A DNA stretch of 64,000 nucleotides from an uncultured Trueperaceae bacterium (GTDB lineage Bacteria > Deinococcota > Deinococci > Deinococcales > Trueperaceae): positions 1 through 64,000 of the forward strand of contig CAWCXJ010000006.1 of NCBI GenBank assembly GCA_963799485.1, written 5' to 3'. The number at the start of each line of letters is the position of its first letter. Position 1 is the stretch's first letter. Under the pieces are notes generated by a model. It saw only the letters and a program-made list of their open reading frames with translations, had not been told where the DNA came from and ran no database searches. A program made the translations under genes and the position numbers. Below are positions 1,145 to 63,713 of this stretch, one piece after another.

Positions 1145-2211
1145 AGCGTATAAATCTCCATTGCGACCCGTTCATTTGTGTGATCCAGACGTTTCGCGGT
1201 GATCTTCGGGCTGTAACGCCCTTCACGCAAAAGTTACGCCGTAAAATGGGTGTTGCTCACTTTACGCATCTCGTGCAGCGTGCTGGGCGTGAAGCCTAGC
1301 GCTTCTATCAGTGAGTCCCGCGCCCGGTAGACGTTTCGGGGTGTAAGCGAGTGCCCGTTCCAACTTGGAAACATGAGGTTGTTCGGTTCGTACCCTTCAC
1401 GCTCGGCAGCGCGGTTCATTCGGGCCATCTGGGTGCGGAACACCGCTGCAAGCTCGTCGGTGATCGGAATGACCCGGACGCTCGCCGGGGTTTTGGGTGT
1501 GTCGTGGTGTTCGCTCCCCTTGCCGTAATGCACGATCTGCTCGGTGATGTTCAGGACGAACTGAGCCCGACCCTTGACAGCGACACTTGAGAGCGCTTCG
1601 CGGCGCAGACCCAACAGCTCTCTACGGCGCAGCCCGGCCTCGAGCGCCGTAAAAAACAGCGGATACATGATGTTTTTAGGATGGGTGGGCCTCATAGCGG
1701 ACTCTCGCGAGGTTCAAAAATGCTTGCACCTGCTCGATACTCCATAGCGGATTGACCTTGCGCTTCGTTCCGGGCGGTCGTTTGATGTTATCCACGTCGT
1801 CACGTGAGACCAGGTGCAGGCGTCCGGCAGCCACCTCGGGCCGCTCTGTACCCGCTGCACGTCCTCGAGGGTCAGGGCCGAGAGCGCGAGTGAGCCGAGC
1901 GCAGGCTCGACGTTGCGGTTCCACATCTCGAGGTCGAAGATCGTCTTGGCCTTGTTGCCCTTGACCGAACGCTTATGCTGCACGAACTCGGCGAAGAGTT
2001 CTGTCACCGTATCGGCTTGTACGGGTACATTTTCGAGCCGCGCGACTTTCGCGTCGAGGTCTGCCGACGCTGCCGCTTTGGTCGGCCCGTAACCCGATAC
2101 CGGTTTAGAAGTCCCGTCCGGCAGGTGAGCCGTGCCCCGGTCGCGGTAGCGAGTGCCGGGGGTTCTGGCCTGAGCCCAGAGCTTAGCTGTTGATTTGCGG
2201 GCTCTGGGCAT
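1145..2211 (-). pseudogene. Tyrosine recombinase/phage integrase pseudogene
   Basis: Fragments in three frames: N-terminal arm/SAM-like part (1714-2211) and catalytic part (ALEAGLRRRELLGL...TPKTPASVRVIP...TLHEMR). After an in-frame TAA at 1234-1236 it continues LLREGRYSPKITAKRLDHTNERVAMEIYTL (catalytic H and Y), then is cut by the IS630 end. Confidence 0.85.
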
Positions 2212-2217
2212 GGGTGT

Positions 2218-2742
2218 TTAGGGGTTGGTCTCGGCGCTGTAGGGCTCGAGCCACGGTTGCGAATCGGCTTTTGCCGAGACCGGATTATCGCCTGGGTCGC
2301 CGACGTGGATATTTAGACCCGAACGAATCTGCACAAAGCCATTACCGCCAAAAACGTAATTCGGCGTAATCTCTAAAAACACACTGACGGCGCTTGCGGC
2401 GTCGAAGTCCAAACCGACAAAGCCGTCGATATAGACTCCCCCCGCGCTGCCCTCTGCGGCGTAACCGAGACCCGCACCGGTATAAAACACGATGCTGTCA
2501 CCAAAAGCGTAAAGCCCGTCAAGTCCTCCCTGCACAAACGAGTCCGCGCCATCTGAACCGAACTGCGCGAGCGCCCGGATTCCGAAGTCGTCATAAAGGT
2601 TGTAGGTGCCGAACTGAAGACCCGCAAGCCCGGTGGCGACTTCGCCGTTGTAGGCCACGCCGCCGGGAAAACCAAAGAAAAACCGCGCCTGCGCCGACGC
2701 AAAAAGAGCGAGCAGAACGGCGGCAAAAATGAGTTTACGCAT
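2218..2742 (-). CDS. Exported protein, probable small outer-membrane beta-barrel
   Basis: Signal peptide (MRKLIFAAVLLALFASAQA), Gly/aromatic alternating strands (FYTGAGLGY, VFLEITPNYVF), SD AAGGAG upstream. Confidence 0.65.
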   Translation of the reverse strand: MRKLIFAAVLLALFASAQARFFFGFPGGVAYNGEVATGLAGLQFGTYNLYDDFGIRALAQFGSDGADSFVQGGLDGLYAFGDSIVFYTGAGLGYAAEGSAGGVYIDGFVGLDFDAASAVSVFLEITPNYVFGGNGFVQIRSGLNIHVGDPGDNPVSAKADSQPWLEPYSAETNP

Positions 2743-3013
2743 AGGGACAACCCTCCTTAGGTTGTGCCTTAGGCGTAGGAATAAAGTGCAGGGCGGGTAG
2801 TAAAGAAGTTGGCATTTTTAAGAGTGGTTGCCGTTGATGACCTCGAGCCAGGTCAAGTGGTTCGAATAACTTTCGAGTAGCGCTTCCTCGCTTGTAATCC
2901 CACTCGAGCCCTGGTCCCGAGGGGTTGCCCGTAAAATCCCTACAGCGCGAGCAGCGGGTTGCGCTTTCCAAACGGCTACCAAAATCCACCTCAGCCCGTG
3001 CTAGCCTAAAGTC

Positions 3014-4483
3014 ATGCCAAGAGGCAGCAGGCTGACGTTCGACCGGGGAACGCTTGTGTTGCACCCGCCACCCAAAGGCAAAAGCTGGGTGGACTTTGTG
3101 ACGTGGGACGACCGCACCGAAAAGTTTCGGCTGCCTGCGTTTCACTACCGGGGTTTGCTCGAGGCCATGCGCGCCGAAGGTGTCGCGGTCACGGACAAAG
3201 CAAAGGGTTTTACGGCGCTTGAGCTTAAAGTGGGGCTCGAGCAAACCCCCTATCCGCACCAGCAAGAAGCACTAGCCGCGTGGCAGCAGGCCGGACGGCG
3301 CGGCGTCGTCGTCTTGCCGACGGGTGCGGGTAAAACCTATCTGGCACAGCTCGCCATGCAAACGACGCCCCGCAGCACGCTCGTTTTGGTACCTACCCTA
3401 GACCTGATGCATCAGTGGTACGCGCACCTCACCGCAGCTTTTCCCGACGCCGAGGTCGGACTGTTGGGCGGCGGCTCGAAAGACCGCACCGCAATTCTCG
3501 TCTCGACGTATGACAGCGCCGCGATTCACGCCGAAACGCTGGGCAACCGCTACGGTTTGCTGATTTTCGACGAATGCCACCACCTGCCGAGCGAATTTTA
3601 CCGGGTCGTCGCCGAGTACTCGCTCGCGCCCTACCGGTTGGGTCTAAGCGCCACACCCGAACGCAGTGACGGCAAGCACGAGACGTTAGGCGTGCTTATC
3701 GGGCCTATCGTTTACCGCAAAGAACCCGAAGATTTAGCGGGTGGTGCGTTGGCCGAACACCGCGTGGTGCAGCTCAAGGTCAAGCTCTCTGCGGAAGAAC
3801 GCAGCCGTTACGACGCGTGTATCGCTACGCGCAACGCTTTTTTGGGCAAACGTGGAATTCGGCTGGGGACGCTCGCGGGCTGGAGCTACTTCGTCCGCGA
3901 GAGCGCCCGCTCGTCAGAAGGCCGCGCCGCCATGCTCGCCCACCGTGAAGCGCGGACTTTGGCTTTCGGCACCGAAGGCAAACTGCGCGTATTGGCCGAC
4001 CTCTTGGCGCAGCACCACGGTGACAGGACGCTCGTTTTTACCGATGACAATGCGACCGTTTACCGTGTGTCGCAGGACTTTCTGCTCCCGGCGATCACCC
4101 ACCAGACCAAGGTCAAAGAGCGTCATGAAACGCTGAGCAAGTTTCGTTCGGGTGAGTATCCGGTACTTGTCACCTCGAAGGTCTTAAACGAAGGCGTCGA
4201 TGTGCCGGAGGCGAAAGTGGCGATTGTCCTTTCCGGGACGGGCTCGAGCCGCGAATACGTCCAGCGTTTGGGCCGTATTTTACGGCGGGGTGAGGGCAAG
4301 CTGGCGCTCTTGTACGAAGTTGTTGCCGAAGACACGAGCGAAGAGGGCGTGTCGAAACGGCGACGTGAACGGCCCGGTTCGGTTGCGGCTGCGTCCAAGG
4401 CCGCAGCCGGTAAATCGCCTGCCCAGCGCACGTTGTTCGCCCCCATTTCTGAAAGCGACGCGCTCGAGCTCGATGAGATTTGA
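3014..4483 (+). CDS. SF2 DEAD/DEAH helicase, XPB/Rad25 (Ssl2)-like
   Basis: LPTGAGKT, DECHH, LGLSATPER, LNEGVDVP and QRLGRILR motifs; adjacent to DUF790. Confidence 0.92.
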   Translation: MPRGSRLTFDRGTLVLHPPPKGKSWVDFVTWDDRTEKFRLPAFHYRGLLEAMRAEGVAVTDKAKGFTALELKVGLEQTPYPHQQEALAAWQQAGRRGVVVLPTGAGKTYLAQLAMQTTPRSTLVLVPTLDLMHQWYAHLTAAFPDAEVGLLGGGSKDRTAILVSTYDSAAIHAETLGNRYGLLIFDECHHLPSEFYRVVAEYSLAPYRLGLSATPERSDGKHETLGVLIGPIVYRKEPEDLAGGALAEHRVVQLKVKLSAEERSRYDACIATRNAFLGKRGIRLGTLAGWSYFVRESARSSEGRAAMLAHREARTLAFGTEGKLRVLADLLAQHHGDRTLVFTDDNATVYRVSQDFLLPAITHQTKVKERHETLSKFRSGEYPVLVTSKVLNEGVDVPEAKVAIVLSGTGSSREYVQRLGRILRRGEGKLALLYEVVAEDTSEEGVSKRRRERPGSVAAASKAAAGKSPAQRTLFAPISESDALELDEI

Positions 4484-9551: not shown

Positions 9552-10397
9552 TTAGCCTTTAACCGCTCCAGCCGTAAGCCCGTCAACGATACGCGCTTGG
9601 AAGATGAGCACGAGAATCACCAGCGGAATCGACACGAGTACCGACGCCGCCATGATCTCACCGAACGGTTCTTGCCGCGCTATTCGCCCGGAAAGTTGCG
9701 CGATAGCAACCGGTACGGTTTGTGAAGCCTTATCGAACGCCGTAAAAGTCAGCGCGAACAGATATTCGTTCCACGCCCCGATAAAGGCCAGCAACCCGGT
9801 CGTGACCAGGGCAGGAGCGGTAAGTGGCAACAGAACTTGCCAGAATGTCTGCATCATGTTGGCACCGTCGACCTGCGCGGCTTGAAGCAGCGAGTCGGGT
9901 AGGGTGCGGAAAAAAGCCGTTAAGACCCATACGGTAAATGGCAAGGAGAAGAGCAGATAGGTCAGGATCAGGCTAAAAAGCGTCGGCATATTGAGAAAGC
10001 GAATAACCGCGTAAAGACCTGAAAGAATCGCGATTTGCGGAAACATGGTCATCGACAAGATGACGTAGAGCGAAACCTCTTTACCGCGAAAGCGCAGTTT
10101 GCCGAGTGCGTAACCGGCAAACGAACCGACGAGCAGTGCGAGCAGGGTCGTGATACCTGCGACGATGACGCTATTTAGCAGTCCACGTAGAAAAGCAGGG
10201 TTGCCGAGTACAGCCCGAAAGTTGATCAGACTGGGGTTGGTAGGCCACAAGGTAGCCGGGGTTTGAAAAAGCTCCCGCTCCGACTTGAGCGCCGAAACGA
10301 CCGCCCAGTAAAACGGAAACATCAGGTAGACAAAGATAAAAAAGATGAGAACCCAGAAGAGGATTCGCATCACCGGTGAGTTGTTGGCTTTGGTCAT
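9552..10397 (-). CDS. Carbohydrate ABC transporter permease (MalG/ThuG-like)
   Basis: EAA-type loop (LLQAAQVDGA), AFIGAWNEYLFAL, six TM segments. Confidence 0.92.
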   Translation of the reverse strand: MTKANNSPVMRILFWVLIFFIFVYLMFPFYWAVVSALKSERELFQTPATLWPTNPSLINFRAVLGNPAFLRGLLNSVIVAGITTLLALLVGSFAGYALGKLRFRGKEVSLYVILSMTMFPQIAILSGLYAVIRFLNMPTLFSLILTYLLFSLPFTVWVLTAFFRTLPDSLLQAAQVDGANMMQTFWQVLLPLTAPALVTTGLLAFIGAWNEYLFALTFTAFDKASQTVPVAIAQLSGRIARQEPFGEIMAASVLVSIPLVILVLIFQARIVDGLTAGAVKG

Positions 10398-14324: not shown

Positions 14325-15230
14325 TTACGTTACTCGCCGTAAATGTGCGGAAGTAGGGGTCTCGAGTTTTGCCAGAAGGGGCTCGAGCCCACTCGTATCG
14401 GTCAGTGCTAACAGGGGTGCCCTGGGATAACCGGCGTCAAGGCCCTGAAGCTTCATCGCCGCCTTGAGCCCCGGAATGCCGAACTTTGTCGTAACGGCCT
14501 GGGCGAGCGGGTTGAGGCTGAGCTGAAGCGCCCTCGCTGTCTCTAAATCCCCTTGCCTGAACGCATCGTAGAGCGCTCTATATTCTCGCGCCGCGACGTT
14601 GGCAACCGCCAAAATACCGCCCTGCGCGCCGAGGGCGAGCGCCGCCAAAAAGGTCGGGGCGCTCCCGGTCAGCACCTGGAAGTCTGCCGGTACCCGCTGC
14701 ATGGTGTCGGTCAGCGCGGCGACGTTGCCCGACGAGTCTTTCATGCCGACGATGTTTTCGTGTTGCGCGAGTTCGGCAATAAGCGCCGGACTCAGTGCGA
14801 GCGTCGTAACGCCCGGAAAATTGTAGAGCATGAGCGGGAGTGGACTCGCTTCGGCAAGTTTACGGTAATGCGTCCTGAGTACGGCTTCGGTCATCGCGGC
14901 GGTGTAGTAGTGCGGCGGTAATACGAGTGCTGCGTCTGCCCCAAGCGCGAGGGCTTCTCGGTTGCGCGCCGCCACCAGATGCGTCGCCTCGCCGCCCGTA
15001 CCGACGAGCAGCGGTTTGTCGGTGGGGATAACTGCGCGCGCCGTCCCTATAACTTCGCGGCGTTCGGCGTCGCTTAAAAAGGCTGCTTCGCCGGTGCTGC
15101 CCAAAATGAGAAAACCGTCTACCGTGGGCTCGAGCCGCCGTAAAAGTCGCTCGAGTGCCCCTGTATCGACGTCGCCGGTGTGGGTAAACGGGGTGGGAAC
15201 CGGTGGGATAATGCCTTGAAGCGTGACCAT
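14325..15230 (-). CDS. Dihydrodipicolinate synthase family aldolase
   Basis: GIIPPVPTPF, LGSTGE, LYNFP, GMKDSSG (Schiff-base Lys). Confidence 0.9.
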   Translation of the reverse strand: MVTLQGIIPPVPTPFTHTGDVDTGALERLLRRLEPTVDGFLILGSTGEAAFLSDAERREVIGTARAVIPTDKPLLVGTGGEATHLVAARNREALALGADAALVLPPHYYTAAMTEAVLRTHYRKLAEASPLPLMLYNFPGVTTLALSPALIAELAQHENIVGMKDSSGNVAALTDTMQRVPADFQVLTGSAPTFLAALALGAQGGILAVANVAAREYRALYDAFRQGDLETARALQLSLNPLAQAVTTKFGIPGLKAAMKLQGLDAGYPRAPLLALTDTSGLEPLLAKLETPTSAHLRRVT

Positions 15231-17329: not shown

Positions 17330-17552
17330 ACGCGCCGAGTATAGTATGGCTGAGTCGTGTGGTTCCAAAACTGTACAGTACCGTAAACTGCCTTTGACTG
17401 TGACCCGTAAAACCATGTTGCGGGTGACCATGCCTGCTTGGGCCGGCTTAAGGCGCAGTCTTTAGAAGCTTGAAGTACCGTTGGTCTTGGATTAGCATAA
17501 TGCCTGCTAGACCGCCCCAAAGCGGCCTGCGCCCGAGATTTACGGGCCGCTA

Positions 17553-44447: not shown

Positions 44448-44475
44448 CTCGAGTCCCGTAAATTGCCCAACCTGT

Positions 44476-44934: not shown

Positions 44935-46287
44935 TTAGACAAACGCGCTGTACCCCGTCACGGCCCGTCCTACGACCAACGTATTGATCTCGTTGGTACC
45001 TTCATACGAATAGATGGCTTCGGTATCGGAAAAGTAGCGGGCAACGTGATGCTCCAACAAAATCCCTTTACCGCCGTGAAGTTCTCTTGCCAGAGCGACC
45101 GTTTCGCGGCAGCGTTTCGCCGTAAAAACTTTGGCGAGTGACGCCTGCTCGTCGCGCATCGTCCCGGCGTCCTGAAGTTGCGAAAGCCGTAGACACAGCG
45201 TCTGCATCGCCGTCACGTTGCCGAGCATCTGCACCAAGAGGTTTTGCACGAGCTGAAAGCCCGCAATAGGTCGTCCGAACTGTTGGCGTTTTTGCGCGTA
45301 GGCTAGAGACTTTTCGTATGCGCCCATCGCGCAGCCGACGCCTTGCCACGCAACCCCGGCCCGCGTCGCCCGGAGCACGTCGGCAGTTGTCCGAAATGAG
45401 TTGGCATTTTGCAAACGGTCGCTCTCGTCCACCCGGCAATCCGTCAGGGTGATGTGTCCGTTTTCCACGGCGCGCAGCGCGATTTTGCCCTGAATCTTTT
45501 CGACGCTAAAACCGGGCGTCTCTTTGCGGACGATAAAGCCCTTGACCTGATTGTCGGCCTCGTCTTTCGCCCAGATCACCGTAAAATCGCTGAAGGTCGA
45601 GTTGCCGATCCAGTATTTTTGCCCGTTTAGGATCCAACTGTCCCCGTCGCGGCGGCAGGTCGTGGTCATGCCCTGCGACACCGCCGAGCCCACGTCGGGC
45701 TCGGTCAGGCCGAACGCACCGATGACTTCAAAGTTACGCATTTTCGGGAGCCACTCGCGTTTTTGTTCTTCGGAGCCGCCCAGATAGATCGACCACATCG
45801 CCAGACCCGAATGGACGCCGAAGAATGTCGTCGTCGAAACGTCGATGCGGGCCATCTCCATGCCGATAATGCCCTCTAAAACGCTCGCATCGGGCCGCCG
45901 CTCGCCCTGCTCGTCGAACAGGGCGCTGATGATGTCCAGGTCTCTGAGTTTACCGATAAGCTGCTGCGGAAACTCGTCGCGTTGCCAGTATTCGTTGGCA
46001 ATCGGTTCGACTTCACGCTCCATAAAGTGCCGCACTTTGAGCTGTACCTCGCGCTGTTCGGGCGTCAGGAGCGCCGCAATATCGAAAAAGTCGCCGTCGA
46101 CTTCGGGCAATGCTTTGGGTTTTTTCGGGGCGGCGAGTTTCATCATCTGCTGCAAGCTGCGCTCGTCCATCGACGACACCATGCCCAGAAGCTGATTGAG
46201 GTCAACTTTCTCGGACAATCTAGCAACCTTCGCCATATCGACTTTGCTGGCTAGCGCCATGATCTTCGTCATATCTTTGATGGCCAT
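44935..46287 (-). CDS. Acyl-CoA dehydrogenase (glutaryl-CoA DH/ACX4-like)
   Basis: [38 protein letters not shown]. Confidence 0.92.
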
Positions 46288-46289: not shown

Positions 46290-48161
46290 CTACCTCTCGA
46301 GTTCAAGAATATGTGCTGAACCTTCTTCGGCTTTACTGTGTCCGTAAAGTGCAGCAATCTGCGTGTTGTAACGTTCTAAGACCGGTTTACGTTTGACTTT
46401 TAGGGTCGGAGTCAGGAGATTGTTGTCGATACTTAGGGTATCAGTCAGTAGCAACGCGCGTTTGGCTTGCGACCATTCGGGCAGAGCGCGGTTGGCCTCT
46501 TTTACGGTGCGTTTCAAGCCATCCGCAGCTTCATCCGGGTTGGTACCGGGCGCTAAAAAGAGGAGCGCGGCGCAGTATTTTTCACCTTCACCGATAACGA
46601 TGGCGTATTCGATGTGGGGGGCGGCCTCGAGCGCTTCTTCCAGCGGTTGCGGCATCACAAACTTGCCGGTTGAAAGCTTAAAGACATTTTTAGAACGCCC
46701 GGTAATCCTTAAAAAGCCGTCTTCCGAGACCTCGCCCAGATCGCCGGTGTGAAACCAGCCTTCCGGGTCGAGCGCTTCGGCGGTCGCCTCAGCGTTGCCG
46801 AAGTAGCCGCGCATCACCTGTGGGCCGCGGACGAGCAGTTCGCCACCCTTAGCAAACCGGACCTCGGTACCGGGGAGCAGTTCGCCGACGGTGCCGGGCC
46901 GGTTATGACCGGGCCGGTTGTAGGCGATGATCGGGCTCGTTTCGGTGAGGCCGTAGCCTTGCAGCGCGGCAACTCCGGCTGCGCCGAAAACCCGCACGAG
47001 CTCGGGGCGCAGGGCCGCGCCGCCGACGATAACGAGTTTGAGCCGTCCGCCCATCGCTTCACGCCAGCGCTCAAACACGAGTTTGGCGGCGGCGCGGTGT
47101 TGGGTGCTGTAAAACGTGTTGCTCAAGATATTTCCTGAAGGGGTGCTTTCCTCGGGTTCATAGCGCCGTGCAAGCGACATCGCCCAGTCGAAAATGGGTT
47201 TTTGGACGCCGCTCAGCTCGGCCCCGGCTTTTAAGATGCCCTCGTAAACGCGCTCCAGAACCCTCGGCACGGTTGCAAAGGTCGTCGGTTGCACCTCTTT
47301 TAAGTGGTCGCGAAGTTTGTCCGGGGTGGTAAAATACACCGCCGTACCCCACGCCAGATAGCCGTAGTGCAGCGTCCGGGCAAAGATATGCGTCAGCGGC
47401 AAAAACGATAGGGCGGTCTCTTGTCCGCGTTTAAGCTCAAGAATTCCCGCAAAGGCCGCCATCACGTTTGAGGAGATGTTTTCGTGCGTGAGCATCACGC
47501 CTTTGGGCGCCCCGGTCGTACCGGAAGTGTAGATGATGGTGGCGAGGTCGCCTGCCCGAACGCTCTGCCGGAGCGCTTTGCCCGCGTCCGCTGAGGCCTC
47601 TAGGAGCGTTTTGCCTCTTGTTATCAAAGTACCAAACGAGACAAAGCCCAGACCTTCGGGGGGTTGAGCCGCGCCCAGACTACGGATGACAACGGTGCGA
47701 ACGGCGGTGCCGTCCAGCATCGGCAACACAGTTTCCAGCAGGCCGGTGTCCGAAACGACGAGGACGCGCGCTTGTGTCTCTTGCAAGATAAACCGAACCG
47801 CGTCCGCACTCTGCGTCAGGTAAATCGGGACGCTGACGAGCCCTGCCATCAAGCAGGCCATATCGGGCAGGCAAAACGAGAGGTCGCTGTGAGTAAAAAA
47901 CGCGACGCGTTCACCTGCCTCAAGACCCATGTCACGCAGGGCGAGCGCCAATGCTTCGGCCTGGGTACGGAAGTCTTCGCTCGAGACACTTCTCCAGCCC
48001 GTTTCGCTCAGCTCGTTAAAGGCTTTTGGGTTCGGGTTGTTCGTACAAGCCTCGTCGAGCAGCGAGGGAAGCGTCCGGCCCAAAACGACCCGCCCGGTCG
48101 TAGCGGTATAGACGGGCTGAAAAGCTGGCGGCGTCGCCGCGTTAAGCGGGGCTACGGTCAT
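46290..48161 (-). CDS. Long-chain fatty acid--CoA ligase
   Basis: [31 protein letters not shown]. Confidence 0.93.
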
Positions 48162-48282: not shown

Positions 48283-49509
48283 CTAACGGCTCCAGAAGGG
48301 CATCTCGCCGTCGGCGAGGACGGCGGGTTCTCCGGTCAGCGGAACCACGACGATTTTTGAACCGCCTTCACTTGACATCGGCAAAACGAGGGCCGTAGAG
48401 TCGGGCGACCAGACGCTATGGCTGAGCGCGTACTGGTCGAAAAAAGGCAAGAACTGGTCGATAAACAGGGGTGTGGGCGTAAAGGCGCTGAGCAAACGGT
48501 CTTCGCCGGTTTCAACGTCGACGACGCGCAGCTCGAGTAGAGGTATATCCTGCGCTACACGCACACCAACTTTTACGGCGCTCGGTGTGCCTATATCCGT
48601 AACGTCCCCGTCGTTCCGGCGTAGCGGCGCGATGTAAGCGATGTATTTGCCGTCCGGCGACCAGAAAAAAGCGATGACAGTCGTTTCGACGAGCGGGGTG
48701 AGGTCGCCGGTTTTGGCGTCTAACAGGCGAATCGGGCCGTAAGGGAGCCCTGTAGCGACAGGCGGGTTCATAACGGCGAGCTGGTCGGCGGCGGGGCTCC
48801 ACGACAAGACGCTGAAACCTTCGTAGGGGAGTTCGCGGCGAACCTCGGCGTTCTCCGGGGTGCTGCCTGCCAACACGGTGCGGGTAGCGCCCCCGCTGAG
48901 TTCGGCGTAGGCGAGATAGTCGCCGCTGGCGGAAAGCCCCGGTGCGTTGAATAGCCCCGGCGTAGCGAGCGGGTCGCCGGTCGGCCCGGTCAGCGAGTAG
49001 AGCGCGAGTTCGCCGCTGTCCAAAACGCCGGTGTGAACGAGCAGACCGTCTGAATCTCTGCTCCACTGCCAGTAGAGCGGGGTGCCGGACGCGACTTTTT
49101 GAGTGTCCTGTGCGTCATTCCTCCCGGTAGATGCGACCTGAAGCTCGAGTCCACCCTCACCCTGCGCCAAAAAGCCGACTTTTTCTCCGTCCGGCGACCA
49201 GTAGAGGTAAATCGCCGGGTTCTCGTAGAGTGTTTGAACCTCGGCGTCGGCGCGGTCTTCCACCGTAAAAACGCCGCTCCCCTCGGCGCTCGCCCCAATC
49301 ACGGCGACGTCGTTGCCGGCAGGCGACCACGCCGGAAACTGATACCGGCGGCCTTCCGGCGTCAGGGTACGCGAGTCGGTGCCGTCCGGCGCAACGGTGA
49401 CGAGCTGTCCGTCGGGGTTGATAAACGCAATGCGCTGCGCGGCTGCGCCCGTAACGAGGAGCAGGAACGCCAGCGGGGCCGCCCGTAAAAGAGATAAAAC
49501 AGGGTTCAT
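48283..49509 (-). CDS. Exported TolB-like beta-propeller protein
   Basis: Signal peptide; repeated WSP(D/A)G motifs. Confidence 0.8.
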   Translation of the reverse strand: MNPVLSLLRAAPLAFLLLVTGAAAQRIAFINPDGQLVTVAPDGTDSRTLTPEGRRYQFPAWSPAGNDVAVIGASAEGSGVFTVEDRADAEVQTLYENPAIYLYWSPDGEKVGFLAQGEGGLELQVASTGRNDAQDTQKVASGTPLYWQWSRDSDGLLVHTGVLDSGELALYSLTGPTGDPLATPGLFNAPGLSASGDYLAYAELSGGATRTVLAGSTPENAEVRRELPYEGFSVLSWSPAADQLAVMNPPVATGLPYGPIRLLDAKTGDLTPLVETTVIAFFWSPDGKYIAYIAPLRRNDGDVTDIGTPSAVKVGVRVAQDIPLLELRVVDVETGEDRLLSAFTPTPLFIDQFLPFFDQYALSHSVWSPDSTALVLPMSSEGGSKIVVVPLTGEPAVLADGEMPFWSR

Positions 49510-49686
49510 ATTCTAGAGTAGCAGCGCTGAGCCGGAGAAACTAGGGGCTGGGGCGTAGGTCTTTTGCTAATGTCGGGCTTAGGCCACCCTACAGATGGGC
49601 AACTCTTTGCACCCTGTAACGTGCAGGCAAAGCTGGCCCGGAAAGCTCGCGCGCCACCCCGAATTTCTGTGAAAAGCTTTTGGCTT

Positions 49687-50481
49687 TTACGGCGCGTCTG
49701 CCAGCGGGTCGGGGTAGCGAAACCCAAAGCCCAGGTGTGTCCCCAAGGCTTCGCTGCTGACGCGCTTGTACCCCTGAAGATGCGGCTCGACAAAGTGCGG
49801 CGGCGCTAACCCCAAACGCTCGGCCTGACGGGTATAGACCTCTCGCCGGGTCGGGTGCTGCGGCGCGCAGACGTTCAAGGTGACGCCCCTGACGCCGCGT
49901 TCGATTACCGCTAGAAGCACGTTCAGCACATCGTCTTGGTGAACCAAGTTGACCGGCGCACTGCCCCCTGAAACGTCACGTCCGGCTAAGCGGCGGCCCG
50001 GTTGCCGGTCGTAACCGTAAAGTCCGGCGAGGCGCAAGACAGTGGCGTTTCTGCGCCGTAAAAGTGTTTCAGCCGCTAGGATGGCCCGCCCCGACGCGCT
50101 GATGTTACCGCCCGCATCGGCTTCGGTGACGGTGCGGCCCAGGTCGGGATAAACCGAGGTCGAACCGGTGAAGATGACTTGTGTGGTTTCAGGTGTGGCA
50201 GCCAAAATAGCGGCGATCTGGGCCGGGTAACGCGTTTCTACATCCGGTTTACGGCGTCCGGGGGGCAGGGTGATGACGAGGGCGTCGGCGTCGAAAAACC
50301 CCTCAGCGTTTCCGGTCAGGGTGGGGGAAAGCTCGAGCCTGTATCCCTCAATTCCTGCTTCGGCTAAAACCCCTAGCTTCTCAGCGTGCGTGACCGAACC
50401 CCGGACGTTGTAACCGCGCGAAGCGAGTTCCGCGCCGAGCGGCAAGCCCAACCAGCCGCACCCCAAAATGCTGATGTTCAC
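49687..50481 (-). CDS. NAD(P)-dependent SDR/epimerase (YeeZ-like)
   Basis: ISILGCGWLG, STSVY, LRLAGLYG, VNLVHQDD. Confidence 0.88.
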   Translation of the reverse strand: MNISILGCGWLGLPLGAELASRGYNVRGSVTHAEKLGVLAEAGIEGYRLELSPTLTGNAEGFFDADALVITLPPGRRKPDVETRYPAQIAAILAATPETTQVIFTGSTSVYPDLGRTVTEADAGGNISASGRAILAAETLLRRRNATVLRLAGLYGYDRQPGRRLAGRDVSGGSAPVNLVHQDDVLNVLLAVIERGVRGVTLNVCAPQHPTRREVYTRQAERLGLAPPHFVEPHLQGYKRVSSEALGTHLGFGFRYPDPLADAP

Positions 50482-50882: not shown

Positions 50883-52138
50883 GTGATAAACCATAAGGCC
50901 GAAGTGCTGCTCCGTGAGGCGTTTCAGGTTGCGCTGCTAGCGGCAGACCCGGCGCGCGCCCTGAGCGCTTATCTGCCCCCGCCACCCGAAGGTCGGTTGG
51001 TCATCGTCGGCGCGGGCAAAGCGGCGGCGGCGATGGCCCAAGCCACAGAAACGTTTTACGGCGCGCGTTATCCAAAAGTGAGGCTCGAGGGTCTCGTCAT
51101 CACCCGCTACGGACACAGCGTCCCAACTGAACGCATCCGCGTGGTAGAAGCGGCGCATCCCGTTCCCGACGCGGCAGGCGTGGCGGCAACCGAGGAGATT
51201 TTGGCGCTTGCTGAGGGTTTGGGCGAAGACGACCTGCTGGTCTGCCTTATCTCCGGCGGCGGTTCGGCGCTGCTGTGTGCGCCGGACGGTGTGACGCTCT
51301 CAGAAAAAGCGGCGCTGACCCAGAAGCTTGTTGCGTTCCGGGGCGGACATCACCGAGATGAACGCGGTGCGGAAGCACCTCTCTAAAGTCAAAGGCGGCG
51401 GGCTCGCTAAAGCGGCCTTTCCCGCAGGAGTCGTCTCACTCATCGTTTCAGATGTTGCCGGGGACGACCTGAGTGTTATCGCGTCGGGGCCGACGGTGCC
51501 TGACGCCAGCACGCTCGCTGAGGCCAAGACGGTTTTCGGCGGTACGGCTTGGAAATCGCCCACACTTTAGCAGCGCCTCCGAAACCCCCAAACCCGGCGA
51601 CCCCATCTTTGAGCGCGTAGCAAACCAGCTCGTCGTCTCGGCCCAAGGGATGCTTGCGGCAACCGCAGCATTTTTTCGCGACCGGGGTATTGCGCCGCTG
51701 ATTTTAAGCGAATCGGTCACAGGTGAGGCGCGTGAAATTGCCAAAATGCACGCGGCAGTGGCGCGGCAAATCCGGACGCACGGGCAACCTTTAGCGCCGC
51801 CGTGTGTGCTTCTTTCCGGTGGTGAGACGACGGTTACGGTGCGCGGCAACGGGCGGGGTGGGCGTAACTGCGAGTTTGCGCTGTCGCTGTCGCTTGAGTT
51901 GAACGGACTCGAGGAGGTTTACGCGCTCGCCGCCGACACCGACGGCATCGATGGGGACACGGGCGCAGCCGGGGCACTCGTCACACCGCAAACGCTCGCT
52001 GCTATAGGCCGCGCCGAAGCGCGCCGTCACCTGGACAGCAACGACGCCTACAGCTTTTTTGAACGTGCAGGCGGCCTCATCCGTACCGGGCCGACGCTGA
52101 CGAATGTCAACGATGTGCGGCTGGTCTTGGTTCTCTAG
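50883..52138 (+). pseudogene. Glycerate kinase type 2 (TtuD/MOFRL), frameshifts near 51327 and 51535-51565 (possibly assembly errors)
   Basis: [47 protein letters not shown]...GGRNCE...DTDGIDG...TGPTLTNVND. Confidence 0.88.
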
Positions 52139-52694: not shown

Positions 52695-52696
52695 AT

Positions 52697-54290
52697 TCAG
52701 CCCACACCTTCTTGCAACAGCCGCACCGCCGCTGTTGCTCCCGGCGACACTAGGGCGGTAATTTCATCCCCGGCCTCGAGCACCGTGTCCGCCGTGACGA
52801 CCCGTTCGGTCAGCGCCCGTTTGAGCGTCACCAAAATGCAGCCGTTCGGAAGTCCTAGCGTCCTCACCGCTTCGCCGTCAAAAGGTGAACCGGGTTGTAC
52901 CGTCAGCGTCAAGAGAAGCGCACCTTCGTCAGCGACGGGTACCGCGTCTGCTGGCACGTCGCGCTTGAGTTCGCGGGCTAGAGAGCGCTTCGTAAACGGG
53001 CGGTACGCCGAACCCTTCGGCGACCGCATACGCCGTAAAACACGCGAGCATTAAAGGCAGCATCTGCCCGTAGTTGCCGGTCATCTCGACGATAAGCACC
53101 AGACCCGTCAGGGGTGCCCGGACGACCCCCGTAAAAAGCGCCGCCATGCCGACGACCGCGAGCGCTTCGGGATTGATACCGAGCTGCGGAAAACCCATTT
53201 GCGACACCACGCCCAAACCCGTACCGAGCAGCGCCCCGAGCACGAGAATCGGCGCGAAGATACCCCCGGGCGTGCCGATGGCGTAGCTGCCGAGCGTCAA
53301 GACGTAGCGCAGCAGCAAAAGCGGCACGATGGCGATGAGCAGGGTGCGACCGGCGAGCGTCTGTTCGATCAAACCGTCACCGGCGCTGATAACGCCCGGA
53401 AAAAAGATACCGATAGCTGCGACGATGCCGCCGACGCCTGCCGCCGTCACGAGCGGGTTGAAAGGAATCTTGGCGACACCGTCTAGGGTCAAGAGGAGTC
53501 CTTGAGTAAAGGCGATGCTGACAAGACCCGCGAGCGCCCCGAGAACCGGATAGAGAAACAGGGTGCTGAGGGCGGGCGCGGCGTAAAAAGGGATGTCGTA
53601 AACGGGCTGCTGACCGTTGGCCAGGCGCGTCACCACGTCGGCAATCACCGAGGCGATGAGCGCCGCGCCGAAAACGTTCGGGGTAAAGCCGCGCTGGATT
53701 TCCTCGAGCACAAACACCACACCCGCCAAGGGCGCGTTAAACGCGGCGGCGAGGCCCGCACCGCTGCCCGCAGCAATCAGCGCCAGCCGTTCACCGGGAT
53801 TGCTCCGAAAAAACCTTGCCAGCGCCGACCCGAGCGCGCCGCCCATCTGCACCGTCGGCCCCTCGCGCCCGAGCGCCAGCCCGCCGCCGATAGCGAGCAC
53901 CCCACCGACGAACTTGACGGGTAAAAGCCGCCCCGGATTGAGACTCCGCAACCGGTAAAAAACCGCCTTGAGGTGCGGAATGCCGCTCCCGACCGCTTCA
54001 GGTGCAAAACGACGGACTAGAAAAACTGCCAGTGCCGCGCTTCCGGCTCCCCACAAAACGCTTGGCAGCCAGCCCCAGAAGTATTCGTGCGCGTAACTCC
54101 CCAAAACCCCGCGCAAAGCTGTACTCGCTTCCAAAAACCAGCGAAACGCCACGGCTAAAAGTCCGGTTCCGAGCCCCAACAGCGCCGCACGTGGGTAAAC
54201 CCGCCGCCGCTGCGTCCGCATCGCCAGGTAGGTGCGGATTTCGCGGTCGGCGCGGCGGGCGTTCGGGTCTAGCGGAGGCTTCGTTGCCAT
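52697..54290 (-). pseudogene. clcA: ClC H+/Cl- antiporter with C-terminal TrkA-C domain, one frameshift near 52980 (possibly assembly error)
   Basis: GSGIP, GREGPTVQ, AAFNAPLAG, GGIFAP, P.YEAL; -1 frame continues LARELKR...PGSPFDGE..RTLGLP..C.LV (TrkA-C). Confidence 0.88.
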
Positions 54291-54419: not shown

Positions 54420-55355
54420 ATGACGTTAGCAGGCAAAGTGGCGGTCGTTGCCGGGGCGACGCGCGGCGCAGGGCGCGGTATCGCCGTAGAACTCGGCGCA
54501 GCGGGCGCAACCGTCTACTGCACGGGCCGCAGCGTGCGCGGGCGTCCGTCGGACATGAACCGCTCTGAAACCATCGACGAGACCGCCGAGCTGGTGACAA
54601 AAGCCGGGGGTCGAGGTATCGCAGTGCAGACCGACCACACGCACGAAACGGAGGTCAAAGCCCTTTTTGAGCGCGTCAAAACCGAGCAAAACGGGCAGCT
54701 CGACCTGTTGGTCAACGATGTCTGGGGCGGCGAGTCGCTTATCAGCTGGGGCAAGCCGTTTTGGGAACAGGACTTGGCAGCGGCGGCGAAGCTCATTGAA
54801 CGTGCCGTTTTCAGCCACATCATCACCAGCCGTTACGGGGTACCGCCGATGGTTGCGCGAGGCCGGGGACTCATCATCGAGATTACCGACGGGGACACCT
54901 TGGAGTACCGGGGCAACTTTTTGTACGACTTTGTAAAAACGTCGGTGATTCGCTTGGCGGTCGGGATGGCGGCTGACCTAAGTGGCAACACGACAACCGC
55001 CTCAGGTAGAGATGTTGCACAGCCCAAAACGAACGTCACAGCGTTGGCGCTGACGCCGGGATATTTGCGTTCGGAGGAGATGTTAGACCACTTCGGCGTC
55101 ACAGAAGAAAACTGGCAAGACGGCGCGAAAAAAGACCCATATTTTATTACATCAGAAACGCCTCTTTATACGGGGCGGGCAGTTGCAGCATTAGCAGCTG
55201 ATTCAAAGGTACACGAGAAAACAGGCAAGGCTTTTTACACGGGTAACTTGGCTACCGAGTACGGTTTTACGGATACAAACGGAACTCAACCCAACTTTCA
55301 AACTTTTTTCAAAGAGATGAAGCTTAAAGAGCCGGCGCTAGGGCAGGCTGAGTGA
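54420..55355 (+). CDS. SDR family oxidoreductase
   Basis: VAGATRGAGRGIA, LDLLVND, YDFVK; SD GGAGG. Confidence 0.9.
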   Translation: MTLAGKVAVVAGATRGAGRGIAVELGAAGATVYCTGRSVRGRPSDMNRSETIDETAELVTKAGGRGIAVQTDHTHETEVKALFERVKTEQNGQLDLLVNDVWGGESLISWGKPFWEQDLAAAAKLIERAVFSHIITSRYGVPPMVARGRGLIIEITDGDTLEYRGNFLYDFVKTSVIRLAVGMAADLSGNTTTASGRDVAQPKTNVTALALTPGYLRSEEMLDHFGVTEENWQDGAKKDPYFITSETPLYTGRAVAALAADSKVHEKTGKAFYTGNLATEYGFTDTNGTQPNFQTFFKEMKLKEPALGQAE

Positions 55356-58165: not shown

Positions 58166-59140
58166 GTGCCGGACGAACCTACTCAGCCGCAGGTAGCAAA
58201 ATCCTGCTGCGCGGTTTCTCGAGCCGCCGGCGACGTTCAGGTTCCTGCTAACGCCGCGCCGACACCTATTAAAGCGCGGAGCCGACTGGCAGAAGGCACT
58301 ACCGACATGGTGCAGCTTCCGGGCGGACGTTTTCTGATGGGTAGCGAAGACGACAGCTTTCCAGGAGACGGCGAAGGTCCGGTTCGTGAGGTTACGCTCA
58401 GACCCTTCTGGATCGACCGCTACGCCGTCACCAACGCTGCCTTTGCCGAGTTCGTCGAAGCGACAGGTTATCAGACCGAGGCGGAACACTTCGGCTGGTC
58501 GTTCGTTTTTTACGGCCTTTTGCCCGAGGACTTTCCGCCGACGCGCGGCGTCGCGCAAACCCCGTGGTGGCGACAGGTTTACGGCGCAAGCTGGGCGCGT
58601 CCGGAAGGGCCACAATCTTCTGTAAATAAGCGCCTCGACCATCCGGTCGTCCACGTTTCGTGGAACGACGCGGCGGCGTATGCAAGGTGGCTGGGTAAAC
58701 GGCTGCCGACCGAGGCCGAATGGGAGTTTGCCGCGCGGGGCGGTTTGGAAGGCAAACGCTATCCGTGGGGCGACCGGCTCACGCCGGACAAAAAACACCG
58801 CTGTAACATCTGGCAGGGGACGTTTCCGACAAAAAATACCGGCAAAGACGGATTTTACGGGACTGCGCCGGTTGACGCGTTCGAGCCGAACGGCTACGGA
58901 CTCTATAACGCGGTCGGCAACACCTGGGAGTGGTGCCGGGACTTCTGGAGCCCGGACTATCGCCTCGGCGGTGCCTGTGAAAACCCGTCAGGGCCGCCCG
59001 CAGGAGCAACGAGAGTCGTCAAGGGTGGGTCGCACCTTTGTCACGCGTCGTATTGCAACCGTTACCGCGTTGCGGCCCGGACGCACAACACGCCGGACAG
59101 CACACTCGGGCACACGGGGTTTCGGCTGGTACGCAGTTAA
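58166..59140 (+). CDS. Formylglycine-generating enzyme (sulfatase-modifying factor)
   Basis: HPVVHVSWNDA, RLPTEAEWE.AARGG, GNTWEW, GGSHLCHASYCNRYRVAAR (both catalytic Cys). Confidence 0.92.
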   Translation: MPDEPTQPQVAKSCCAVSRAAGDVQVPANAAPTPIKARSRLAEGTTDMVQLPGGRFLMGSEDDSFPGDGEGPVREVTLRPFWIDRYAVTNAAFAEFVEATGYQTEAEHFGWSFVFYGLLPEDFPPTRGVAQTPWWRQVYGASWARPEGPQSSVNKRLDHPVVHVSWNDAAAYARWLGKRLPTEAEWEFAARGGLEGKRYPWGDRLTPDKKHRCNIWQGTFPTKNTGKDGFYGTAPVDAFEPNGYGLYNAVGNTWEWCRDFWSPDYRLGGACENPSGPPAGATRVVKGGSHLCHASYCNRYRVAARTHNTPDSTLGHTGFRLVRS

Positions 59141-60573: not shown

Positions 60574-61905
60574 CTAAGCGTTCACTCTTTCCGGCTCCGG
60601 GTTCATAAACGCCGGTAAGTACGCCTTTTGCGCCGCCGCCATCTCGTCAAACATGCTGCGGATTTCCTCTAACGAACAAACCGCCGCCGTCAGCGGGTCA
60701 ATCATCAGGGCGTGAACGGCGGCTTCGCGGTCTCCCTCCAAAACTGCGGTCGCCACCAGGTCGTGAAACGCCATGTGCGGCTGGTCTAAGGCCGCCAGAT
60801 GCGTCGGCAGTGAGCCGAAATGCGTCGGTTGCACACCTTTCTTATCCACCAGACACGCCACCTCGACCACGCCTTGCGGCAAATTATCGATCAGGCCGGT
60901 GTTCGGCACGTTGCCGTAAATCACCTGCGGTTTGCCCGTTTCCATACTTTCGATGATGTACGACGCATATTCGGGGCCACGCGCCATGTCGAAGTCTTCT
61001 CTGCCTGCCATCGCGCTTTCCAACTCGTGAAGGTATTCTTCTCTCCACCTCGGCCAGTTGTTCGCGTAGTAGCCGCTCTCGCCCTCGTAGCCGCTCCGCA
61101 TGTACTTTTCGATGAGGTCGGGGCGTTTACGAAAGTAGGCGGTGTATTCGGACGTATGCCCGCTCGATTCGGTGACGAACGCGCCCAGGTGTTTCATCAT
61201 CTCGAAGCGCACCGGGTCGCGTTCGTAGATTTCGGGGTGTTGTTTGATGCGTTCCCGTAAAACAGGGTAGAGGTCTTGTCCGGCGCGCCCCAACCTCACA
61301 ATCCACGCCAGATGATTGATCCCCGCCCCCTGCCAGTCGATCTCTTCGTAAGGGATATCCAAGTATTCGGCGAGCTGATGCGTCGTGTGCTGAATGCTGT
61401 GGCAGAGTCCGACAATCGGCAATTTTGATGCTCTCACGCCGGTTAAAACGGTTAGTGACATCGGGTTGGTGTAGTTCAGCACCAGCGCGTTCGGTGCGAG
61501 CCTTTCGGTGTCCCGTAAAATCTCTATCCAGGCGGGCAACGTCCGCAAAGCCTTGAATAAACCCCCCGGCCCGATGGTGTCGCCGATGCACTGGTCAACG
61601 CCGTACTTTAACGGAATGTCGTAGTCGTGCCGGACGTTTTCCAGCCCCGAAACCTCAACCGAGTTAATCAGATAATCCGTACCGGGCAAGAGTTTCGTTC
61701 TATCGGTTGAGGCTTCGACGTTCCAGTTGCGACCCGTTTTGCTGACGAGCCACTCGGTCATCTTGTGAGCGACCTCGAGCCTACTTTCGTCTATATCAAC
61801 TAAGGCAAACGTTCCGGTCTCGAGTCCCGGCGTCGCCAGAATGTCTTTGATAATTTCGGCAGCAAATACAGCGCTGCCTGCGCCTATGAGCGTTACTTTG
61901 GGCAT
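60574..61905 (-). CDS. melA: GH4 NAD+-dependent alpha-galactosidase/glucosidase
   Basis: LIGAGSAVF, DIPLKYG, DTIGPGG, LNYTNP, GLCHS, GINH. Confidence 0.9.
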   Translation of the reverse strand: MPKVTLIGAGSAVFAAEIIKDILATPGLETGTFALVDIDESRLEVAHKMTEWLVSKTGRNWNVEASTDRTKLLPGTDYLINSVEVSGLENVRHDYDIPLKYGVDQCIGDTIGPGGLFKALRTLPAWIEILRDTERLAPNALVLNYTNPMSLTVLTGVRASKLPIVGLCHSIQHTTHQLAEYLDIPYEEIDWQGAGINHLAWIVRLGRAGQDLYPVLRERIKQHPEIYERDPVRFEMMKHLGAFVTESSGHTSEYTAYFRKRPDLIEKYMRSGYEGESGYYANNWPRWREEYLHELESAMAGREDFDMARGPEYASYIIESMETGKPQVIYGNVPNTGLIDNLPQGVVEVACLVDKKGVQPTHFGSLPTHLAALDQPHMAFHDLVATAVLEGDREAAVHALMIDPLTAAVCSLEEIRSMFDEMAAAQKAYLPAFMNPEPERVNA

Positions 61906-61999
61906 GAGGTTCCTTTCAGAAGTTAGGAGGAAGAAGGGAGAATACAGAATGCAGAATTGAGACTTTTACGTTCTCCCTCCTGTGTTCTACATTCTGCTT

Positions 62000-62830
62000 T
62001 TACTTCACCCCCGAGAGCGCAATCCCTTCGATAAACTGCTTTTGTGCGAAGAAAAAGACAATCACAATCGGCGCGATGCTGACCGTCACGCCCGCCATCA
62101 TCACCGCCCAGCGCCCGCTGTACTGCGCCTGAAAGAGTGCCAGCCCGACGGGTAGGGTGGTCTTCTCCAAATCGCTCGGCAGGTAGATTAGGGGGCCGAA
62201 GAGGTCGTTCCACGAGAACAAGAAGGTAAAAATCGCCAGCGCCGCCAGCGCCGGACGTGCCAGCGGCAGGTAGATACGCCAGTAGATTGTCCACAGCGAC
62301 GCGCCGTCAATCCGGGCCGCTTCTGCGAGTTCGCCGGGAATCGTCAGAAAGTATTGCCGTAAAAGAAACGTCCCGAACGCGCCGCCTAAAAATGCGGGTA
62401 GGTACAAGGGAATCTGCGTACCGTAAAGCCCCAAAAAGCGGTAGATGATGAAGTTGGGAATCAAGGTCACCTGAAAGGGGATCATCAGCGTCACCAGCAG
62501 CAAGACGAAGAGCGCGTTACGGCCCCGAAACTTTACGGCGGCAAAGGCGAAGCCCGCCATCGAACAGGTTAAAAGTTGGCCCAGCGCCGAGAGCGAGGCG
62601 ATTTTGAAGCTGTTCCAGATAAGCCGGGTAAACGGGAGTGCGTCCCAGAGGCCGGTGTAGTTATCAAGCGTCACCGGGTCGGGGATGAGCGTGCGCGAGA
62701 ACTGGTCGGCGGGTTCTTTGAGCGACGTTGAAATCATCCACACGAACGGCCCAGCCATGATGAGTGCGCCAAAAATGAGAAGCGTGTAGGTTAGGGCGTC
62801 GAATAAGCGGTCTCGAGTTTTTATGCTCAC
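62000..62830 (-). CDS. Carbohydrate ABC transporter permease
   Basis: LAEAARIDGA, FSWNDLFGPL. Confidence 0.92.
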   Translation of the reverse strand: MSIKTRDRLFDALTYTLLIFGALIMAGPFVWMISTSLKEPADQFSRTLIPDPVTLDNYTGLWDALPFTRLIWNSFKIASLSALGQLLTCSMAGFAFAAVKFRGRNALFVLLLVTLMIPFQVTLIPNFIIYRFLGLYGTQIPLYLPAFLGGAFGTFLLRQYFLTIPGELAEAARIDGASLWTIYWRIYLPLARPALAALAIFTFLFSWNDLFGPLIYLPSDLEKTTLPVGLALFQAQYSGRWAVMMAGVTVSIAPIVIVFFFAQKQFIEGIALSGVK

Positions 62831-62831
62831 A

Positions 62832-63713
62832 TCACACCACCCAGCGCCGCTGAATGCGGAAATACACAAGCGTCAGGACGAAGATGATCAGCGCCAGCAC
62901 GATAGCTTGGGCGCTCGCTTGGCCCATGCGGAAGTAGTTGAAGCCGTTGCGGTAGATGGTAAAAACCAGGGTCGGGGTGGTGGAGCCACCGCTCGAGGTG
63001 CGCGTCAGGATATAGATGTATTCAAAAACCTGAAACGCGTTGATGGTCGAAATCACCGCCTGAAAAAAGATGCTCGGGACGATTAAAGGCAAGGTAACGT
63101 TGGTGAGCCGTTGCCACCCGCTTGCCCCGTCGAGTTTGGCGGCTTCGTAGTAATCACGTGGGACTGCTTGCAGTCCGGCTAAGAAGATAATCATCCCTTC
63201 ACCGATTGCACCCCAGATATTGACGACCGTGACCGAATAGAGCGCCATATCGCGGCCCAGCCAGCGCACCGGACTACCGCCCAGAGACGTGATGAGGGTG
63301 TTTAACAGCCCGTTGTCTTGCGCGTAAATCCACGTCCACAAAAGCCCGATGGCCACCGACGACGAGATGACCGGCAAAAAGAACAACACCCGAAAAAAGC
63401 TGACGCCGCGAATTTTACGGTTTAGGAGCAGCGCCACGATAAGCGACAAGACGATGACGCCGGGCACGTACATGGCGGCGAACTGCGTGGTGATGCGTAA
63501 GGACTGCAAAAAGAGCCGGTCGGTCGGCAGCGCCAGATAGTTTTGCAACCCGGCCCACGTCGGCGGCGTTAAGAGGTCCCACTCGAGCAAGCTGATAGCA
63601 GCGCTCGCTACAACCGAGCCGACCGCGCCGAACAGAAGCCCCAAGAGCGTCGGTGCGAGCAAGAGGAGCAGCCAGAGCCGCTCACGTCCCAGAGGTTTAA
63701 TCCCGCTCTGCAT
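62832..63713 (-). CDS. Carbohydrate ABC transporter permease
   Basis: IFLAGLQAVP..YYEAAKLDGA. Confidence 0.92.
   Translation of the reverse strand: MQSGIKPLGRERLWLLLLLAPTLLGLLFGAVGSVVASAAISLLEWDLLTPPTWAGLQNYLALPTDRLFLQSLRITTQFAAMYVPGVIVLSLIVALLLNRKIRGVSFFRVLFFLPVISSSVAIGLLWTWIYAQDNGLLNTLITSLGGSPVRWLGRDMALYSVTVVNIWGAIGEGMIIFLAGLQAVPRDYYEAAKLDGASGWQRLTNVTLPLIVPSIFFQAVISTINAFQVFEYIYILTRTSSGGSTTPTLVFTIYRNGFNYFRMGQASAQAIVLALIIFVLTLVYFRIQRRWVV

Follow-up and report, generated by a model that had tools for sequence, protein, structure and literature searches.

What is the short word CCGTAAA that recurs on both strands of a 64-kb stretch of Truepera DNA, and what has spread it there? The stretch, called the window here, corresponds to positions 1-64000 of contig C6 (G000:C6:1-64000) in the source genome G000 (3.66 Mb in 15 contigs), which the nearest RuvB loci place in Truepera (Trueperaceae, Deinococcota). 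The word is a non-palindromic 7-bp core that is often extended to the 8-mer CCGTAAAA and the 10-mer CGCCGTAAAA. Whole copies of the word are helically phased to one another with a period of 10.2–10.3 bp out to about 200 bp, which is a new finding made in two genomes. Taken with its distribution and its imprint on proteins, the word may tentatively be read as an uptake-signal-like self tag spread by biased transmission, a function that we infer from sequence patterns.

In the window, CCGTAAAA is present in 45 exact copies (28 on the forward and 17 on the reverse strand), against a mean of 3.0 ± 1.6 and a maximum of 7 in dinucleotide shuffles. The earlier note on this DNA had counted about 43 (27 and 16) and had mentioned many additional, often extended 7-mers. 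Every coordinate it gave carries a copy, and the 7-mer CCGTAAA occurs 85 times (47 forward, 38 reverse), with 45 copies extending to CCGTAAAA, 20 extending to CGCCGTAAAA, and 40 being 7-mers only. The word is not confined to the window, as G000 contains 3,274 copies of CCGTAAA (0.9 per kb), 1,547 of CCGTAAAA, which ranks among the commonest 8-mers of the genome, and 540 of CGCCGTAAAA. Markov models of orders 1 to 5 predict 158, 250, 322, 676, and 1,078 copies of the 8-mer, all below the observed number; the order-5 model soaks up part of the 8-mer signal because the core is 7 bp long. The expectation for CCGTAAA is 553 (order 1) or 961 (order 3), and that for CGCCGTAAAA is 21–55.

The 8-mer is as abundant as had been claimed, but it is not the unit. 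Flank logos and one-off counts resolve a sharp 7-bp core with weak flanks, [C/T][not T]CCGTAAA[A/C]. In G000 the perfect word reaches 6–10 times its expectation, single-base variants of the core 0.6–2.7 times. Position −2 favors C, position −1 is taken by G, A, or C and seldom by T (5%), and position +1 prefers A, then C, then G, with T again being seldom found. The information is confined to these 7 bp and three weak flanking positions, which does not fit a repeat of the repetitive extragenic palindrome or miniature inverted-repeat transposable element type, as these are longer, structured, mostly intergenic, and spread by copying. Systematic base-calling error is an unlikely source, since differences from relatives fall at every position and no one-off neighbor is depleted.

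The word is also no effect of codon or peptide usage, as had been argued earlier from its several reading frames and its presence in intergenic DNA. Relative to 2,781 genes from our own caller, which cover 78% of G000, CCGTAAAA occupies all five frames that avoid an in-frame TAA, and 364 of its 1,547 copies (23.5%) lie outside called genes, compared to a 21.7% genome share. Coding DNA holds 1,175 copies of CCGTAAAA, against 205 ± 10 when synonymous codons are shuffled within genes and 119 ± 10 when codon order is shuffled; for CGCCGTAAAA there are 423 against 38 ± 4 under the synonymous shuffle. The word is realized at 2,547 of the 10,617 positions in G000 where the protein permits it synonymously. 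Realization depends on the peptide and amounts to 645 of 805 sites (80%) for [FLIV]-Y-G, 547 of 1,162 for F-T, and 474 of 5,743 for L-R, the last by way of the rare TTA-CGG. A codon or peptide artifact is therefore rejected on the frames, the non-coding share, the shuffles, and the synonymous realization.

Gains of the word often cost an amino-acid change. Where a lineage-specific site differs by one base, the encoded residues are unchanged in 147 of 244 cases (60%) compared to a baseline of 79%, and where it differs by two, in 26% compared to 54%. The [FLIV]YG tripeptides stand at 1.28 (G000) and 1.31 (G005) times their expected number in two genomes rich in the word and at 1.00 in the related G002. 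No preference for gene starts, gene ends, or terminators is seen in G000, save for 31 genes whose stop codon lies within CCG-TAA. The earlier remark on copies in terminator loops is anecdotal. Between 34 and 53 kb of the window, 2 of 22 terminator-like hits overlap a copy (25 hits are expected by chance), and there is no hairpin association across G000 (27.5% of copies, 25.9% of control words). Pairs within 30 bp in G000 comprise 21 convergent, 16 divergent, and 88 same-strand pairs.

The phasing was measured by a periodogram of same-strand pair distances between 8 and 200 bp. In G000 the peak lies at 10.2 bp (power 31.5, N = 540), the codon period reaching only 14.8, and in G005 the strongest of all periods lies at 10.3 bp (power 14.5, N = 240). 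When the sites were jittered by any step or by multiples of 3, the observed power was reached in 0 of 1,000 cases in each of the two genomes. Four control words show period 3 only, and ordinary A-tracts in G000 show a faint periodicity of about 11.1 bp. The phasing in G000 persists when multiples of 3 are excluded from the distances (power 10.3) and dies out past about 200 bp. Convergent and divergent pairs are periodic in G000 as well, and since their offsets of about 4.4 and 6.0 bp together make one period, they share a common reference at the A-tract center. In G005 only the divergent class is significant.

Phasing is visible even in synonymous codon choice, which is a physical clue to how such words are read. 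With the peptide fixed, L-R sites near a copy are realized in 127 of 635 cases in phase versus 43 of 534 out of phase, and [FLIV]YG sites in 136 of 144 versus 56 of 77. The Mantel-Haenszel odds ratio for in-phase realization is 2.2 (z = 4.3, each pair counted once), control periods giving 0.67–1.19. Possible sites near a copy that are unrealized have no phase preference (699 in phase, 673 out). An amphipathic-helix periodicity of the encoded proteins is rejected as the cause because the unrealized sites are unphased and realization is phase-dependent. Tandem or paralogous duplicates are likewise rejected, as the power is still 30.7 without four duplicate pairs. Sites private to G000 and sites private to G005 never occurred on one molecule, and they show no mutual phasing (power 0.0, N = 80). 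It speaks against the phasing claim that pairs not within one gene keep the same phase with a power of just 4.1 (N = 175). Isolated copies are accompanied on their A-tract side by a weak A/T oscillation (period 10.7–10.8 bp, amplitude 1.3 percentage points, power about 30), which is in phase with the A-tract center; the opposite side has a power of 6.

Two arrays, partly made of 14-bp tandem units, stand in non-coding DNA of G000. Eight copies at C5:17250-17477 are flanked by genes for an ABC transporter and a membrane protein, and five copies at C6:454594-454671 by uppP-like and gltX-like genes (named by eye).

The word was searched in 31 genomes, comprising 6 of Truepera (G000–G005) and 25 other relatives. 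It is enriched in G000, G005, and G001 only, that is, in 3 of 6 Truepera and 3 of 31 genomes, which agrees with the lineage-specific character suspected before. Copies of CGCCGTAAAA relative to its reversed control number 540/24 in G000, 435/17 in G005, and 196/34 in G001, versus 21/5 in G002, 25/17 in G003, and 16/15 in G004; none of the 25 other relatives stands out, G008 being slightly raised (49/21). Observed and expected counts of the core in 400-kb samples are 434/61 (G000), 330/60 (G005), 200/62 (G001), and 41/24 (G002). Among RuvB loci from the phylum, only 2 of 80 are enriched for the word. The enriched genomes are the closer kin, with 77–84% DNA identity to the window versus 72–74% for the others, and no alternative non-palindromic word was seen in G002.

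In aligned orthologous DNA, copies arise through point substitution. Sites of G000 are kept as the word in 50% of cases in G005 (baseline for all 7-mers 30%) and in 29% in G001 (26%), versus 4.5% in G002, where the baseline is 18%. A 1.25-Mb alignment of G000 and G005 contains 595 shared sites, 501 G005-only sites, and 658 G000-only sites, of which only 59 touch a gap. Over 103 kb of three-way alignment, the presence patterns (G000, G005, G001) are 111 in 15 cases, 110 in 39, 100 in 40, 010 in 31, 001 in 22, 101 in 5, and 011 in 4, and gains exceed losses in every lineage. The changes toward the word fall at all seven positions, and the partner one-off words are varied, some needing T-to-C or G-to-C, so that neither AT pressure nor a single mutational step can be the cause. 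By these comparisons the word is derived and still spreading, independently in each lineage. Sister species with and without it, at a graded load (observed/expected about 7, 5.5, 3, and 1.7), would make any receptor and the drive dynamics dissectable.

The word is depleted in islands that bear integrases and transposases. Copy-free gaps of at least 7 kb number 29 in G000 where 6 are expected, and contigs C2 and C3 hold 0.25–0.27 copies per kb compared to about 0.9 elsewhere. In the inspected gaps we found phage-type integrases, a transposase of the Mutator family, or an island of 24 kb with 66% GC. The word thereby serves in practice as a marker of native versus acquired DNA in the enriched genomes. 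The 24-kb island (G000:C4:217359-241697) has its genes, metabolic by eye, all on one strand, and is without CCGTAAA; it looks acquired from a high-GC relative. Strand polarity is absent, in line with the weak skew reported for the window. In G000, 779 forward and 768 reverse copies of CCGTAAAA are nearly balanced in every 50-kb window, and no 100-kb window is polar in 2 contiguous Mb of the 4-Mb contig of G005 (870 versus 803). GC skew is nearly absent in G000 and too weak to locate an origin or terminus. Without polarity, the word is no classic Chi site or FtsK-orienting polar sequence (KOPS), the conclusion that had been drawn from the window.

Among known systems, the uptake signal sequences (USS) of Pasteurellaceae are similar in being short non-palindromic words that recur about once per kb, use both strands, and lie inside as well as outside coding DNA. 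Parts of one account (PMC2817400) describe further likenesses, namely that encoded peptides are inflated, a protein effect of the same kind, and that genes that are recently acquired or without homologs lack USS. According to a section of another (PMC3458573), the core of the Haemophilus signal is flanked on one side by helically phased T-tracts, which are thought to aid DNA kinking; CCGTAAA resembles this signal in its A/T tracts that are phased on one side of a GC-containing core. It differs from USS in its Deinococcota lineage, its 7-bp core, its lower enrichment, the mutual phasing of whole copies, and the lack of terminator pairs. The DNA uptake sequence (DUS) dialects of Neisseriaceae are clade-specific words as well, whose variants track phylogeny (PMC3630211, in part) and which are used to mark native versus mobile DNA (PMC7371117, in part). 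Unlike DUS, CCGTAAA appears within a genus, with no older dialect detectable in genus-mates, and the inverted-repeat terminators of DUS are not seen. Cyanobacterial HIP1 (GCGATCGC) is similarly hyper-abundant and conserved at orthologous sites and, according to PMC13756078, is now tied to transformation. However, HIP1 is palindromic and methylated, and its periodicity is given in a portion of PMC5861425 as 18–94 kb and not as the helix pitch. Chi and KOPS are over-represented 7–8-mers of the core genome too, but they are strongly co-oriented with replication.

The force behind the word works at the DNA level and on both strands, overrides weak protein constraint, spares newcomers, and is limited to one clade. 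Since uptake-signal drive produces just this, an uptake-signal-like tag ranks first. In such a mechanism, sequence-biased transmission would drive CCGTAAA into long-resident chromosomal DNA, most likely through word-bearing DNA being preferentially taken up and recombined during natural transformation. Recognition would be cooperative and dependent on the helix face: the copies are spaced by one or several turns of the helix, as are weaker A/T-rich tracts toward the A-tract side, a layout that would favor one-sided binding or DNA bending. USS and DUS systems rely on a receptor that recognizes the word, for example the minor pilin ComP. For the present word, uptake is the proposed biased step, and any receptor is putative. 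That uptake-signal drive yields patterns of this type is described in parts of PMC2817400 and PMC1939737. Among the literature matches listed, CCGTAAA was found only in primers, and there was no paper on uptake sequences in Truepera. If it is an uptake signal, a further lineage would have one, in a phylum known for transformation and not for uptake specificity, and the signal would have been caught shortly after its origin.

Competence machinery speaks for an uptake signal, as each of the five Truepera genomes tested carries ComEC, a ComEA-type HHH domain, DprA, a secretin, and pilin-like genes. Several observations weigh against one. These genes also occur in the non-enriched G002 and G003, so that they do not explain the limit to one clade. 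A receptor specific to the enriched clade was not found, no search aimed at one having been made. Copy spacing in G000 is clustered (coefficient of variation of gaps 1.34). Terminators built from inverted pairs, a frequent though not universal trait of USS and DUS, are not seen, and hairpins show no excess in G000. To our knowledge, the enrichment (6-fold for the 7-mer, 26-fold for the 10-mer) is far below USS and DUS levels, and we know of no positive in-phase cooperativity between copies described as a USS property. Thermus is not known to prefer particular sequences in the uptake of DNA. Finally, cooperative phasing suits an array of a face-specific binding protein equally well.

Such a protein is the core of one rival explanation, in which the copies are sites for an abundant architectural, segregation, or repair protein that binds the chromosome cooperatively on one helix face, the phase being kept by selection. 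Phasing beyond the jitter nulls in both genomes, offsets that center on the A-tract, in-phase realization under a fixed peptide, the unphased sites that never shared a molecule, and the two non-coding arrays all agree with it, and a period below 10.5 bp would be expected of DNA wrapped on a protein surface. It is nevertheless unlikely, as selection on each of about 3,000 sites that overrides amino acids and reaches 80% saturation is hard to credit, the phasing weakens for pairs not within one gene, no candidate protein was found, and the genes that flank the arrays are housekeeping genes. Somewhat doubtful, too, is a bolder combination, in which CCGTAAA would be the recognition element of an undescribed single-genus system that reads copies cooperatively on one helix face, and that is now changing synonymous codons and some amino acids throughout the genome. 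The system would be either a machine for uptake or self-recognition, dependent on bendable arrays in phase, or a wrapping chromosomal protein.

Repair- or modification-linked biased gene conversion within the cell, where for example a methylated or protein-marked word is favored in heteroduplex correction between genome copies, could account for gains at all positions that outnumber losses and for the residence of the word in long-resident DNA. Deinococcota are polyploid with frequent gene conversion, and many methyltransferase genes are present. Yet helical phasing is not predicted, the T-for-C neighbors CTGTAAAA, TCGTAAAA, and CCATAAAA are undepleted (1.5–1.8 times expectation) and give no very-short-patch-type signature, and none of the methyltransferases found is confined to the enriched clade, which makes this explanation improbable. 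The Eco57I-like methylase encoded in the window is rejected as the driver since its gene is conserved across the genus, G002 included, and the PF01555 methylase of G000 is rejected since G001 has it in broken form and G005 yielded no match to it. A Chi-like modulator of helicase-nuclease action on double-strand breaks, which would serve in either orientation since breaks occur at random in stress-resistant bacteria, has very little probability. An over-represented 7-mer specific to the core genome is what computationally identified Chi sites look like, and an uncharacterized open frame of about 900–970 aa with a PDDEXK domain is found in 5 of 5 Truepera genomes; however, strand polarity is absent in G000 and in 2 Mb of G005, RecC is found in 0 of 5 Truepera genomes, and saturation, protein imprint, and phasing are foreign to Chi. 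The earlier note had left an uptake-sequence-like and a modification-driven word side by side. Its observation is confirmed and its interpretation partly supported, with the uptake-like alternative staying the best fit and the modification-driven one lacking a clade-restricted enzyme; phasing and protein imprint had not been seen there.

The copies in the window are the following, with the peptide of the overlapping gene given where there is one.

1239..63420, both strands: span with 85 core copies
1239..1246, +: 8-mer copy (CGCCGTAAAA), antisense F-T-A in gene 1234-1695 (-)
1647..1654, +: 8-mer copy, antisense F-T-A
2929..2936, +: 8-mer copy, outside called genes
3208..3215, -: 8-mer copy, antisense F-T-A in the XPB-like helicase gene
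4278..4285, -: 8-mer copy, antisense I-L-R (TTA codon)
9740..9747, +: 8-mer copy, antisense F-T-A
15138..15145, +: 8-mer copy, antisense L-L-R
17381..17412, +: same-strand pair 24 bp apart (17381 7-mer only, 17405 8-mer), outside called genes
19911..19918, +: 8-mer copy, antisense F-T-V in the catalase gene
21721..21728, +: 8-mer copy, sense A-R-K
24267..24274, +: 8-mer copy, sense P-V-K
26101..26201, +: three same-strand 8-mers (26101, 26143, 26194; spacings 42 and 51 bp), antisense x-L-R in the Eco57I-like methylase gene
26925..26932, +: 8-mer copy, antisense F-T-A in the Eco57I-like methylase gene
27381..27388, +: 8-mer copy, outside called genes
30050..30057, -: 8-mer copy, sense A-V-K
31295..31302, -: 8-mer copy, antisense F-T-A
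31979..32019, -: same-strand pair 33 bp apart (31979 8-mer, 32013 7-mer only), antisense F-T-A
35203..35210, -: 8-mer copy, sense T-R-K
35812..35819, +: 8-mer copy, outside called genes
38466..38473, +: 8-mer copy, sense A-V-K
38883..38890, -: 8-mer copy, antisense F-L-R
39466..39473, -: 8-mer copy, antisense F-T-G
40270..40277, +: 8-mer copy, sense A-V-K
41089..41096, -: 8-mer copy, antisense V-L-R
42131..42148, -: two same-strand 7-mers 11 bp apart, V-Y-G and F-T-A
44435..44462, +: 8-mer (44435) in a terminator-like hairpin and 7-mer (44456), 21 bp apart
45120..45127, +: 8-mer copy, antisense F-T-A
45579..45586, +: 8-mer copy, antisense F-T-V
46500..46507, -: 8-mer copy, sense T-V-K
48571..48578, -: 8-mer copy, sense A-V-K
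49263..49270, +: 8-mer copy, antisense F-T-V
49483..49490, +: 8-mer copy, antisense L-L-R
49685..49692, -: 8-mer copy, outside called genes
50056..50063, +: 8-mer copy, antisense L-L-R
51054..51061, -: 8-mer copy, antisense F-Y-G
53033..53040, +: 8-mer copy, antisense F-T-A
53129..53136, +: 8-mer copy, antisense F-T-G
55265..55272, -: 8-mer copy, antisense F-T-D
58508..58515, -: 8-mer copy, antisense F-Y-G
58853..58860, -: 8-mer copy, antisense F-Y-G
61255..61262, +: 8-mer copy, antisense V-L-R
61513..61520, +: 8-mer copy, antisense I-L-R
62357..62364, +: 8-mer copy, antisense L-L-R
63413..63420, -: 8-mer copy, sense N-R-K

Bases 1-1144 at the contig end, which include a DDE_3 transposase (392-1129, +), are without CCGTAAA; this absence had been reported correctly, from a sample that is trivial. 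The Eco57I-like methylase gene (25999-27651, -) is conserved in 5 of 5 Truepera genomes tested and bears four copies of CCGTAAAA, a fifth lying just upstream at 27381. In G000 it may be broken, as its N6_Mtase match crosses an in-frame TGA and the open frame has 480 aa compared to 577–629 in its kin. A further methyltransferase (N6_N4 family match, 1,084 aa, 53% GC), the one broken in G001 and not found in G005, lies in a defence-like island at G000:C4:100470-110583. By eye, this island also contains an SNF2-type-like helicase, a VapBC-like small gene pair, and a 1,076-aa Res-like protein.

A second word, the palindrome CTCGAG, is hyper-abundant in G000 with 7,252 sites, 5,826 of them in coding DNA versus 1,664 ± 37 under the synonymous shuffle. 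It is not coupled to CCGTAAA. Its density is normal in most copy-free gaps, the 24-kb island of 66% GC included, and no description of its iteration was found among the literature matches listed. Most RuvB loci of Trueperaceae and Thermaceae, low-GC ones included, are likewise enriched for CTCGAG, which is thus a phylum-level iterated palindrome separate from CCGTAAA.

Two further gene arrangements are found in the window. At 50883-52138 (+), a DUF4147 domain and a MOFRL domain are encoded by neighboring, separate open frames of 167 and 221 aa; as the two usually belong to one glycerate-kinase-type protein, the gene may be split or carry a frameshift. At 3014-5817 (+), an XPB-type helicase with a damage-recognition domain is followed by a DUF790 protein, an arrangement that resembles the bacterial XPB-nuclease pair.

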